From an uncultured delta proteobacterium (GTDB lineage: Bacteria; Desulfobacterota; Binatia; UBA9968): a stretch of 64,000 nt of DNA. The stretch is from NCBI GenBank assembly GCA_963755715.1, contig CAVWLW010000034.1:32001-96000 (forward strand), given 5' to 3'. The position numbers and the translations under genes were made by a program. Below the pieces are notes generated by a model that did no database searches, was not told the DNA's origin, and saw only the letters and a list, made by a program, of their open reading frames with translations. Shown one piece after another: positions 20,124 to 25,036 of this stretch (positions are counted from its first letter, which is position 1; every line of letters begins with the position of its first letter).

Positions 20124-20585
20124 TCAATTTTCCAACCGCACCTTCGTCCCGAGATTGGCGCAGTCTTCGTCGGTCTTGAGGCCGGCGGCGCGGATGCCGT
20201 GGGCGGCGAGCTCCTCGTCACGCTCCTGCGTATCGCCGGTGACGCCCACGGCGCCAAGCAACTCGCCTTTCTCGCCGCGGATCAGCATGCCACCGCCTTC
20301 GGGAAAAATCTGATCATCCGAGGCGCGCATCAGGTACTGCATGAACAGCGGCCGCTCCTCCGTGCGCATGCGCACCAGCGACGACGATCGACCCAAGGCC
20401 AACGCCGCATACGCTTTACCGTACGCCATTTCGAAACGCATCATCGCCGAGTCGTCTTCTTTTTGAAACGCTTTGACCTTGGCGCCGGGCTCGACCACGA
20501 TGACGCTGAGCGGACGACATGCCAATTCGCGGCCGCGCGCGAAAATGGCCGTGATGATGCGATTCGCTTGTTCTAGTGTAATCAT
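20124..20585 (-). CDS. GlcG/HbpS family heme-binding protein
   Basis: MITLEQANRII, AYGKAYAA, GGMLIRGEKGELLGAVGVTG...DEELA. Confidence 0.88.
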   Translation of the reverse strand: MITLEQANRIITAIFARGRELACRPLSVIVVEPGAKVKAFQKEDDSAMMRFEMAYGKAYAALALGRSSSLVRMRTEERPLFMQYLMRASDDQIFPEGGGMLIRGEKGELLGAVGVTGDTQERDEELAAHGIRAAGLKTDEDCANLGTKVRLEN

Positions 20586-20687
20586 GCTCCTGCAGCCCCC
20601 AAAATACGCGATAAAGAAATCGCGGCTTCTGTTGTTAGCGCGGTGTCTGTAGCCGCGAGGTTTCAAACCCGCTAGGACTTCTCTTTA

Positions 20688-21542
20688 CTATCGGAACAAA
20701 ACCTTGGCCAACTCCGAGCGGTATTTGTCGGTCAACGGGTCGTCGGGGCCGAGCACTTCGAAGATCTGGATCATCGCTTTGCGCGCGCCGTCGTCTTGAA
20801 ATTCGCGATCTGCTTTCACGATAGTTAGAAATTCGTTGAGTGCCTCTTCATACTTCTCGGCCCCGGCGAGCGCCTGGGCGAGCTCGAAGCGAGCCGCGAT
20901 ATTGTTCGGCTCGACTTTGACTTTTTCGCGCAACGCCGCTTCATTCGCCGTCCCGCCGGCCTGAAGATTCAAACGGGCGATCAGCCGATCCGCTTCTTTG
21001 CGCTCGTCGGCGACCATAGGTACTTTATCGAGATGCTCCAGCGCGGTGGCGCTATCGCCTTCGTTCATGGCCAACCGCCCCAGCCCAAGCAGCGCCTTGG
21101 CATGGTTCGGATCGGATTCGAGAATTGTTTGGTAGAGTGCTTTCGCCTCGGCGGTTTTACCCTCTTCTTCGAGAGCTTGAGCCTCGAGCGCCTGCTTATC
21201 TGCCGCTGTCGGCAGAAACTTTGACAGGAACTCACGCAGCATCGGCTCCGGCAGCGCGCCGGTAAACTCCGACGCGAGATCGCCGTCTTTAAACAGCTTC
21301 ACCGCCGGGATGCCTTGGATGCCGAAGGCGCCCGCTAACCCCTGGTTTTCATCGACGTTGACTTTGGCCAGGATGAATTCACCGGCATACTCGTCGGCAA
21401 GTTTTTCGAGCACGGGACCCAGGACTTTGCACGGACCGCACCATTCCGCCCAGAAGTCCACCATGACGGGAACTTCCGTCGAGCGCTCTAAGACTTCCGC
21501 CTCAAAATTTTCTTCGTTAACGTCGATCGTCCACTGATTCAT
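20688..21542 (-). CDS. cnoX: Thioredoxin-TPR chaperedoxin (CnoX/YbbN family)
   Basis: WAEWCGPC thioredoxin domain, TPR repeats and C-terminal DDGARKAMIQIFEVLG...YRSELAKVLF. Confidence 0.88.
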   Translation of the reverse strand: MNQWTIDVNEENFEAEVLERSTEVPVMVDFWAEWCGPCKVLGPVLEKLADEYAGEFILAKVNVDENQGLAGAFGIQGIPAVKLFKDGDLASEFTGALPEPMLREFLSKFLPTAADKQALEAQALEEEGKTAEAKALYQTILESDPNHAKALLGLGRLAMNEGDSATALEHLDKVPMVADERKEADRLIARLNLQAGGTANEAALREKVKVEPNNIAARFELAQALAGAEKYEEALNEFLTIVKADREFQDDGARKAMIQIFEVLGPDDPLTDKYRSELAKVLFR

Positions 21543-21562
21543 ATCGGCTCTACTCTCTTACC

Positions 21563-21594
21563 TTGAACGTTTTGAAGGCTTGAACGATTTGAAC
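21563..21594. repeat. Nonamer-period tandem repeat (about 4 TTGAAC units)
   Basis: ttgaacgtt-ttgaaggc-ttgaacgat-ttgaac, intergenic. Confidence 0.55.
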
Positions 21595-21598
21595 AAAA

Positions 21599-21844
21599 TC
21601 ACTTGGCGATGATCGCCTTGGCGAAGTTGCGCACGTTGGCAGCCACCGGACGCATGGCGTAAACCACCGTCTCCCAAATCTCGTCCTCGCTGGCGCCGAG
21701 CTCGCGCGCCCGACCGAGATGGAGCTTGGCGCCGTGCTCATGGCCGATCGCCAAATTCACTGCGAACAAGATCAGTTGCGCCGCTTTCGGATCGAGCGAT
21801 CCTTCTTTATATTTTACATTGAAAAATTCAGCGTCCGTCGCCAT
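21599..21844 (-). CDS. Carboxymuconolactone decarboxylase/AhpD-like small protein with no Cys
   Basis: GSLDPKAAQLILFAV...KLHLGRARELGASEDEIWE; GGAGGTG SD. Confidence 0.8.
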   Translation of the reverse strand: MATDAEFFNVKYKEGSLDPKAAQLILFAVNLAIGHEHGAKLHLGRARELGASEDEIWETVVYAMRPVAANVRNFAKAIIAK

Positions 21845-21866
21845 TTTATCACCTCCGTGTCGCGAA

Positions 21867-22358
21867 TTATTTTTTGAATGAATCCGGATCAAACGCCGCG
21901 CCGTTGAGCGTGTACTCGCTTTTCACCTCCGTCGGCTTGCGGATGGTCTGAATCACATAACAGCCCGCCTCGGCATTGCGTACGACTTTGGCGATTTTTT
22001 CCGGTGATTCATCGGAGGTTATTTCGCAGCGGGTTTCCACGCCCAATCCTTCCGCCTGTACGGTCTCGCGTAATACTGAGCCCTCGTTCTTGAAGCGCGC
22101 CATGACAAAAACCTTCGCTTTATCGATGTGCGTCTTGAGCATTTCCCCGTACCGGGAAATTTGCGTCAGCAGTCAAAACCCCACCGAAAGGGCGAAATAC
22201 GCGAGCGGCGGCGGCGCGGTATTGGCGCCGCCGATACGTTCACCCTCGTCGCAAAAAACCGTGAAGCCGCGCGCGTGCCCTTCTTTGCGCATCCGCTCCA
22301 AGGTTTCGGCGTCGGCTTCCAAGACAATCTCCCGCTTGATTTGCAGATCCTCGCCCAC
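21867..22358 (-). CDS. OsmC/Ohr-like selenoprotein, about 163 aa, UGA at 22175-22173 read as Sec
   Basis: ORFs 22173..22358 and 21867..22142 are in one frame separated only by TGA: DEGERIGGANTAPPPLAYFALSVGF-U-LLTQISRYGEMLK...AEAGCYV. A hairpin starts 12 nt after the UGA. Confidence 0.85.
22141..22160 (-). promoter_or_regulatory. Putative bacterial SECIS hairpin
   Basis: ATTTCCC-GGTACG-GGGAAAT, 12 nt 3' of the UGA, with G at the start of the apical loop. Confidence 0.7.
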
Positions 22359-22446
22359 GATCCCTCCGGGTAGTCGACCCTCCCACTGCGCGCTTCAATC
22401 AATATATTCACAATCGCCGGTTGTTTCCAGCCGCGAAAAGTTTCCC

Positions 22447-23514
22447 TCACGGGCGCTCGATGTTCGAGTATTCTTCCGAATAGAGATCGAGCAACGCTCG
22501 CAGCAGCGCTAACAGCGCCGGGCCGAGCACGATCCCCACCGCACCGAAAAGCGAGAGACCGCCAAGGATGCCGAAAAAGAGAAATAGGACCGGCAGGCCG
22601 AGACGATTGCCGATGAGAAGCGGCTTGAGAATATTGTCCACCGTGCCGACAAATCCCAAGCACCAGACCAACAGCACGACGCCGCGCACCGTTTCGCCCT
22701 GGAGAAACAAGTAAATCGCGGCCGGTATCGAAACGATCGCCGACCCACCCACCGGCAACAGCGAGACAAAGGCCGTGACCACGCCCCACAATACCGCGTA
22801 CGGGACACCTAAAAACCAATAAGCCCAGCCGGCGAGCAGCCCCTGCACCATCGCGACGACCAGGGAACCGTGCACCACGGCCAAAACGGAGTCGACGATG
22901 TTTTTGAACAGCCGCTGTTGATGCTCTTGGTCCATCGGCAGCAGCCGCTGAATCCGATTGACCAGCTCGGCACCGTCGCGCAGGAAGAAAAATAGCGTAA
23001 ACAAAGCAACGATAAAATTAACCGTGAAAAGCAGCACGTTCTGAGCGATCCCTTTGACTTGTGTAACGATAAACGTCGACGAAGATTGTGCCCCTTGAAT
23101 CAACAAATTCTTCCAGTCGATCTTGAAATCCACCAGTCGGAACGTCGCCATATCCCACCAACCGATCAAGTGCTGCACCCACGGCTGCGCCAGCCATTGC
23201 TGCTTGCCATCTTCGTCCAGGAGCAAACGCACCGACTGAAGCAACGAGACCGCCTCGTCCGCTAAAAACCGCGCCAGCTCGACGCCGGGCGCGATCACGA
23301 TAATCGTGATCACGACGATGACCGTCATCGCTGCGAGCGTCGCGCGCCCGCGCATAAGTTCGAGCAGCCCGGCGTACACCGGGTAGAAGAGAATGGCGAG
23401 AATCGCCGCCCAAGTGATCGCCGTCAAAAACGGCGTCAAGATCAAGAACGCGCCGTACAGAATGAGCAGAAGAAGCGCGAAGAAAAAAGCGGTCACGAGC
23501 CAAGTTCGATTCAC
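22447..23514 (-). CDS. AI-2E family transporter
   Basis: Multi-TM; LFFFLRDG, DNILKP, GILGGLSLFGAVGIVLGP. GTG 23514 follows GGAGAGGA. Confidence 0.9.
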   Translation of the reverse strand: MNRTWLVTAFFFALLLLILYGAFLILTPFLTAITWAAILAILFYPVYAGLLELMRGRATLAAMTVIVVITIIVIAPGVELARFLADEAVSLLQSVRLLLDEDGKQQWLAQPWVQHLIGWWDMATFRLVDFKIDWKNLLIQGAQSSSTFIVTQVKGIAQNVLLFTVNFIVALFTLFFFLRDGAELVNRIQRLLPMDQEHQQRLFKNIVDSVLAVVHGSLVVAMVQGLLAGWAYWFLGVPYAVLWGVVTAFVSLLPVGGSAIVSIPAAIYLFLQGETVRGVVLLVWCLGFVGTVDNILKPLLIGNRLGLPVLFLFFGILGGLSLFGAVGIVLGPALLALLRALLDLYSEEYSNIERP

Positions 23515-23763
23515 CGAGTGGCTTCCTCTCCAATCCGTCAACTGTACGTAGAAGAACTGTCGGTGGCAAGGCGCCACAAACCGCGATAGCCCGTGCGGCG
23601 AAAGCTTAAGCGCAAGCATCGCTGCAATTGCAAAGGGCAAGATTTGAATTGATGGTCAATGTGCCAATCGTAGACAGATCCATCTGATGCCGCGGATTAC
23701 TGCCGCTGATGAAAACGGTCAGGCGAGAAAGTAAAAACTGCGCGGCCCGGATTTCCGGAGCGC

Positions 23764-25036
23764 TCACAGACTGCCGACGAAGCGACCGGGATTGAGCAAT
23801 CCCGCGGGGTCGAATTGGTGCTTGATCCGGCGCATGAGCGCTAGGGTCGGTGGCGATAGCCCCCATACTTCAAGGCCGTGCTTAAGGTCGCTTGGCGCGG
23901 CGAAGATGATAACGTGACCGCCGCGGCTATTCGCCATTTCCGTCAGTTCGGCAAAGCGCGAGGCGTTTGCTTTATTTGCTTGACAAGTCAACCAGACGGT
24001 ACCGATCGCGGCATCGGCGCTGATTGCCGCGCCGTGCCAATTTTTGATCCTCGGGATGAAGTTAAAGACTTCGGCGCGCGGCAGCGTGATGCGAAAGACC
24101 AGACGTTCGCTCTGCAAAGGGACGTTCTGACGCGCTTGCCAAAATTCATTCTGGCCTTCGTCACCGAAAAATTCGGCGGACATCCCTAATCGATCGGCGA
24201 GCGCCCTTACATCACGACGGCATCGGCTTATCGTCTCGACAAATCCTTCAAACCTCGCTGCGATCTGCCAGCGCTCCGACTCCTGGTTTTGTAAAAGCAC
24301 GACCGCCGCCGGCAACAGAGGCGAATGAAGCAACTCTTCGGCGAATTTCTGCGCTTGCGCCAAAGTGCCCGATACGAGCGCGGTCTCGCTGCTTTCGGGA
24401 AGCGGCGTCAAGCGCAAAGTCACTTCGGTGATGACGCCGAGAGTGCCGAGGGAGCCGACAAAAAGTTTGCACATGTCATAGCCCGCGACGTTCTTGACGA
24501 CTTTGCCACCCGCTTTGATCTGTTCGCCGCTGATGAGAACCACTTTCATGCCGATCACCAAATCGCGCACGCTGCCGTAATAACTGCGCCGCGGTCCGTT
24601 GAGATTCCCGGCAACGATGCCGCCGACGGTGGAGCGTTCGGGAAACGGCGGGTCGACGGGCACGAACTGGCGTTGGCCTGCGAGCAGTTGTTGCAGCGCG
24701 GCCAGACTGATCCCGCTTTCTGCCGTCACCGTGAGATTGGCGGGGTCGTGGTCGATCACGCGATCGAGTCTGCCAGTATTGAGCACGACCTCAACTTGGC
24801 GCGGCGGATTGCCCAGCGCCATGGCGGTGCCGCCGCCCCAGGGAGTTACAGTCGCATCCGCTTCCGCGCAGAGACGGAGTGCCGCGCTCACTTGCTCTCG
24901 ATCTGGCGTGCAGACCAATGCCGGTTGCTTGCCGTCCACGCGAGTGAGAAGTGAGCAAGTCGGCATTTAAACTAACCGCGTCGGCGCCTAGCTCGGCGGC
25001 CAATCGCTGCGTCAATTGATCGGGAGTCGATTTCAT
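23764..25036 (-). CDS. glcE: Glycolate oxidase FAD-binding subunit GlcE-like (frameshift near 24950)
   Basis: PWGGGT, GGKVVKNVAGYDMCKLFVGSLGTLG, FDPAGLLNPGR; N-terminus MKSTPDQL in another frame. Confidence 0.82.

Follow-up and report, generated by a model that had tools for sequence, protein, structure and literature searches.

OsmC-like selenoproteins have been described by computational prediction. The 'OsmC-like protein' selenoprotein family (COG1765, UxxT motif) was described from three sequences in the Sargasso Sea data (Zhang, Fomenko & Gladyshev 2005, Genome Biol 6:R37; PMC1088965). A 2007 study of a worm-symbiont metagenome again counted three sequences (PMC1976440), and a 2026 review tabulates the family under PF02566 with the UxxT motif (PMC13188914). 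In their entries on this family all three sources give it from sequence analysis, and the first of them names, as a feature of the bacterial SECIS, a small apical loop that contains G. The initial annotation of the locus studied here had stated that such selenoproteins were predicted computationally, which agrees with the family and motif given in PMC1088965 and with a curated NCBIfam model, NF041052 "OsmC-related (seleno)protein".

The locus lies within the window, by which we mean the whole 64,000-nucleotide stretch of DNA that was analysed. In OsmC/Ohr proteins the first redox residue is peroxidatic and attacks the hydroperoxide, the second resolves it, and a reductant restores the enzyme; for Ohr and OsmC this reductant is a lipoylated protein. 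To our knowledge, the pattern met most often among bacterial selenoproteins is Sec standing where a protein of thiol peroxidase type has its catalytic Cys.

The gene described here is a member of the selenoprotein family known since 2005, and no defining difference was found between it and that family. It shares with the NF041052/'OsmC-like protein' family the HMM score, the UxxT motif, the Sec/Cys pairing, a G-loop SECIS-type hairpin and the COG1765/PF02566 type. Unlike the published members, which the entries cited above draw from marine reads and a worm-symbiont metagenome, it belongs to a soil/sediment lineage. It changes no concept; the family, known from prediction only, gains one further confident member. 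The additions made here are modest: the register of the hairpin, its frozen synonymous sites, subfamilies of Sec paralogues with compensating stems in the order, a conserved thioredoxin-TPR neighbour, and the fragmentary state of most database entries for close relatives.

Reading frame, family and fold of the product

The table-11 ORF listing cut the gene in two, giving a 61-aa ORF (22358..22173) and a 91-aa ORF (22142..21867). Direct translation of the minus strand gave a single frame whose sole in-frame interruption is the TGA listed in Table 1, so that the proposal of the initial annotation, two ORFs forming one frame broken by TGA alone, was confirmed to the base. The codon stands in the context ...APPPLAYFALSVGF-U-LLTQISRYGEM..., where the UxxT motif of the 'OsmC-like protein' selenoproteins is present with an in-frame TGA as its Sec codon, and a further Cys follows downstream in ...AEAGCYV.... 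Judged from sequence, this is very probably one gene for an OsmC-like selenoprotein of the NF041052/COG1765 type, in which UGA-62 would be decoded as Sec.

Table 1. Features of the OsmC-like selenoprotein locus (positions in the window).
Feature	Position	Strand	Remarks
FAD-linked oxidase	23764-24966	-	upstream of the transporter
AI-2E-family transporter	23640..22447	-	upstream of the selenoprotein gene
Likely ribosome-binding site, purine-rich GGAGGG	22367..22362	-	3 nt upstream of the GTG start; read from the sequence
OsmC-like selenoprotein CDS (predicted)	22358..21867	-	GTG start at 22358, 163 codons, TAA stop 21869-21867; translated with TGA as U
UGA codon, predicted Sec62, opening the UxxT motif (U62-L-L-T65)	22175-22173	-	codon column and homologues
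Possible lower helix including the UGA (tentative), 22179-22173 with 22138-22132	22132..22179	-	minimum-free-energy fold
Apical SECIS hairpin (predicted) inside the CDS, codons I67-M73	22160..22141	-	covariation, frozen synonymous sites
Covariation-supported stem, with loop 22152-22150 (G-U-A)	22159-22153 / 22149-22143	-	columns 17-23/27-33, loop columns 24-26
Small CMD/AhpD-like protein	21844..21599	-	Pfam CMD, E 7.2e-09; next gene downstream
Thioredoxin-TPR fusion, WCGPC	21542..20688	-	Pfam Thioredoxin, E 2.7e-29, plus TPR_20 and TPR_19
HbpS-like haem-degrading-family protein	20666..20124	-	downstream end of the cluster

The GTG start aligned with residue 1 of a full-length database relative of 166 aa (P0002, 76% identical), and a weak sigma-70-like match was found upstream of the gene (22429..22401, minus strand). 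P0002 was the one full-length protein among the 120 best database relatives listed, the other 119 being C-terminal fragments of 90-102 aa; most database entries of close relatives thus hold the C-terminal fragment only. Because standard gene callers split the gene, the proteomes of this soil/sediment lineage under-report both the redox enzyme and the use of selenium. Contigs from one RNA-library run covered just 21600-21804 and 22244-22383, and the UGA lies outside both segments.

With C substituted for U, the product matched the Pfam OsmC profile (PF02566) with an E-value of 1.7e-12 and 48.1 bits (gathering score 27.5), and matched NF041052 with 175.9 bits (curated cut-off 95) over profile positions 2-144 of 144. 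Twenty diverse homologues, sharing 20-71% identity with the window's protein, were aligned, and the only three invariant columns were Y54, U/C62 and C133. The profile built from this alignment was compared with solved chains; the best match was 3cje (E 3.2e-20), followed by 2opl, 9wo1, 2onf, 1lql, 1vla and several Ohr entries. In the five solved OsmC-family chains whose alignments were printed, Cys stood under U62 in 5/5 and under C133 in 4/5. The TGA therefore occupies the position of the first catalytic Cys of OsmC/Ohr, and the second Cys, in AEAGCYV, is kept, both as had been noticed from the letters at the outset.

An AlphaFold2 model built on the same alignment had a mean pLDDT of 94.9. 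U62 lies in a long helix (51-73) of this model and C133 between helices 119-132 and 134-139. The best 13 Foldseek matches of the model were all of OsmC/Ohr type, with E-values from 9e-10 to 6e-08 and TM scores up to 0.76/0.87, at a sequence identity to the solved OsmC/Ohr chains of 10-20%. The product thus resembles the OsmC/Ohr hydroperoxide reductases (PF02566; 1vla, 1lql, 2onf, 6mjn, 1n2f) in its fold and its two redox columns. It is unlike them in having predicted Sec for the first Cys and a thioredoxin-TPR protein as conserved neighbour, and its peroxidase activity is putative.

Conservation of the UGA codon and the selenocysteine genes

TGA was found at the same column in 80/82 motif hits from related genomes, the remaining two having TGC and TGT. 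These hits comprise the readable loci with unpublished ones left out (62 distinct TGA contexts). Since the genomes are related to one another and some records entered twice, the counts overstate independence. Of the 61 genomes searched from the order, the window's own included, 58 gave a match and 55 a match with in-frame TGA; when two unpublished genomes were removed, the latter figure was 53/59. Only three genomes (G010, G016 and G022) had stop-free matches alone, and no match was found in three of the 61 (G017, G028 and G030, which are 91, 84 and 88% complete). Orthologues of the same genus were 95-99% identical in protein to the window's product, and U was kept at the Sec column in paralogues down to ~30% identity. 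The stop-free homologues, the distant ones as well as a paralogue on contig C50 of the same genome, carry Cys at this column, giving the Cys/TGA pairing by which the initial annotation had proposed to judge its claim.

The possibility of a sequencing error at the codon was addressed with Logan contigs. Those of three DNA runs, from three studies, span 22173-22175, and no letters other than TGA were seen; this evidence consists of assembled contigs rather than raw reads, and one of them may derive from the source sample. Metagenome runs from 14 studies, covering soil, rhizosphere and freshwater sediment, contained near-identical DNA.

Genomes of the order hold more than one such gene. Several Sec-containing OsmC-like paralogues were seen (loci L040-L053 and L093), with up to six matches per genome, and locus L093 has two TGA-containing OsmC-like genes ~2 kb apart.

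Genes for selenocysteine synthesis and insertion were sought in the genome (7.4 Mb in 76 contigs, 93.6% complete), and all four of selA, selB, selC and selD are present. The selA match scored 541 bits, the SelB winged-helix domain scored 77.7 bits within a 654-aa open frame adjoining selA, and one tRNA-Sec with the anticodon tca was found. The selD gene lies beside them and carries an in-frame TGA of its own.

In this assembly selD (contig C3, ~71,086-72,013, outside the window) is split over two frames. Compared with the intact gene of a relative, it has exactly one extra base over 1041 aligned bases; in 18/20 relatives selD is a single frame with one TGA, and it is split into two frames in the window's genome alone. 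If the break were real, the strain would make no selenophosphate and hence no Sec-tRNA, and the UGA would terminate translation after 61 residues, making the OsmC-like gene a very recent functional casualty. We consider this quite improbable, and an assembly indel the likelier cause of the split. A lone inserted base is a typical error of assemblies with few, long contigs such as this one; selA, selB and the tRNA-Sec gene are intact; and the OsmC-like gene itself has kept its TGA, its hairpin and the rest of its sequence, close to the same-genus orthologues.

A different objection is that an ordinary Trp or Cys tRNA reads the UGA, or that the codon has been reassigned, so that residue 62 is not selenocysteine. 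P0002 lends this some colour with a Trp at the Sec column, a residue taken from the protein record only, which could reflect either a TGG codon or an annotation pipeline reading TGA as Trp. On the other side, TGA ends 740/1678 open frames of at least 400 codons in the genome and is their commonest terminator, so the codon is not reassigned. The TGA-free homologues have Cys, not Trp, at this column, which speaks against read-through by Trp, and the covarying hairpin after the codon (below) and the full Sec machinery are what SelB-dependent decoding requires. Decoding by a standard tRNA or reassignment is therefore very improbable, and the Sec reading is retained.

The hairpin downstream of the UGA

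Fold stability did not set this region apart. For the 71 nt from 22180 to 22110 the comparison with dinucleotide shuffles gave z = -0.95, with 36/200 shuffles at least as stable, and 195/2000 synonymous recodings of the same peptide were at least as stable as the actual sequence; stability alone is not significant. The SECIS claim therefore rests on conservation and covariation.

Codon usage over the hairpin was compared with the rest of the gene in 48 distinct orthologue sequences from 65 loci, unpublished loci being left out. Under the hairpin, the codon entropies of the six degenerate codons (Ile, Ser, Arg, Tyr, Gly and Glu) were 0-0.29 bit with a mean of 0.09. For 61 further codons whose amino acid is conserved the mean was 1.16 bit, and 0/61 were as low as 0.29. 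The same result was obtained with unpublished loci included. The adjacent Leu, Thr and Gln codons vary freely.

For covariation, 59 distinct sequences of 48 nt, each beginning with the TGA and paralogues included, were aligned without gaps. The helix of columns 16-23/27-34 was paired in 85% of cells and had double-sided changes at 6/8 pairs; double changes occurred in 34 cells, where shuffles averaged 5.7. The covariation score of this helix, 0.258 versus 0.062, was reached by 0/500 shuffles and exceeded that of every slid register. The outermost pair, 16-34, forms in 5/59 sequences, and the working stem is therefore 17-23/27-33. In the loop, G24 never varies, and at least 90% of the 59 sequences have U25. 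Paralogous subfamilies have differing stem sequences that still pair in the same place. These data support the SECIS-like hairpin 3' of the UGA that had been proposed at the outset.

The register first proposed was a 7-bp inverted repeat with a 6-nt loop, beginning 12 nt past the TGA. The repeat is present, and the register (columns 16-22/29-35) had 82% of cells paired; its covariation score of 0.091 was reached by 147/500 shuffles, and it was set aside as lacking support from covariation. The window's own sequence can form both registers. The family evidence favours a predicted 7-bp stem on a 3-nt G-U-N loop, one base off the earlier register. The tentative lower helix that takes in the UGA appeared in minimum-free-energy folds of the window sequence and same-genus orthologues only, and was not recovered by RNAfold in distant orthologues.

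The stability values lie where they would be expected if the hairpin were a coincidence and the TGA had arisen by error in sequencing or assembly, or by nonsense mutation during decay of the gene; the assembly does hold at least one probable indel defect, in selD. Such an origin is scarcely credible in view of the TGA kept in 80/82 motif hits down to ~30% identity and in contigs of three DNA runs from three studies. The frozen synonymous sites and the stem covariation fall exactly over the hairpin, and the two halves of the gene are in frame and jointly make up one OsmC domain. A functional UGA followed by a constrained hairpin remains the preferred reading.

The hairpin is like known bacterial SECIS elements (E. 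coli fdhF type, bSECIS consensus) in being a stem-loop in the coding sequence immediately 3' of the UGA whose small apical loop carries an invariant G and then U, in a genome with the Sec genes. It is unlike them in its family-specific stem and in having no Rfam match, and SelB binding is here predicted. The Rfam scan, run with an E-value threshold over 21500-22600, gave no match, which means that no curated family fits and nothing more.

Some variants of the hairpin were noted. The three DNA-run contigs all carry A where the window has T at 22142 (plus strand). On the coding strand this A to U change at column 34 would turn Met73 into Leu; the favoured register would gain an A16-U34 pair, and the other would lose one of its pairs. 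In one subfamily (L051) the stem lies in another register with a GCUU loop. A Cys-type paralogue with TGT (L054) still folds a 7-bp hairpin near the SECIS position, either as a possible remnant from a Sec-containing ancestor or by chance.

Gene neighbourhood and proposed mechanism

Five genes follow one another on the same strand in the order AI-2E transporter, selenoprotein, CMD/AhpD-like protein, thioredoxin-TPR protein and HbpS-like protein. Synteny was examined with unpublished loci left out; the loci used are kin, and some are records fetched twice. The thioredoxin-TPR gene was found downstream on the same strand in 45/45 close orthologue loci with at least 1000 nt downstream, in 5/7 loci at 62-78% identity, and in 0/7 loci of the paralogue group at ~60% identity or lower. 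The conservation of this neighbour suggests a dedicated reductant.

In the mechanism that we propose, the SECIS hairpin in the coding sequence would put its G-U-containing apical loop ~21-23 nt after the UGA. With the ribosome on the UGA, SelB with Sec-tRNA(Sec) and GTP would recognise the apex of the hairpin and deliver Sec, as in the established bacterial mechanism, the Sec-tRNA(Sec) presumably being made by the products of the genome's selC, selA and selD. By analogy with OsmC/Ohr, Sec62 in the long central helix would act as the nucleophilic (peroxidatic) residue and become oxidised by a hydroperoxide or comparable oxidant. Resolution by Cys133 would then give a selenenylsulfide, which a thiol reductant would reduce. 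Synteny points to the thioredoxin-TPR protein with its WCGPC active site, probably co-transcribed, as the candidate for that reductant.

A bolder and rather doubtful extension is that the Sec-OsmC and the thioredoxin-TPR protein might together form a self-contained selenium-dependent hydroperoxide or disulfide reductase, in which the thioredoxin-TPR protein, and not the lipoyl proteins of Ohr/OsmC, would recycle the selenenylsulfide. The multiplied Sec-OsmC paralogues of the order, each with its own co-evolved SECIS stem, might then serve different oxidants. A compact predicted SECIS with natural compensatory variants, adjoined by a conserved candidate reductant, provides clean material for a first experiment.

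The CMD/AhpD-like gene stands between the OsmC and thioredoxin genes in 31/45 close orthologue loci and is absent from more distant loci. It was considered as a second selenoprotein gene and rejected, having no TGA and scoring 29 bits against a cut-off of 110 with the GSU3128 (seleno)protein model; its product has neither Cys nor Sec at the CxxC position of AhpD-type proteins, where His and Gly stand instead. In many orthologue loci the HbpS-like gene is kept, following the thioredoxin-TPR gene.
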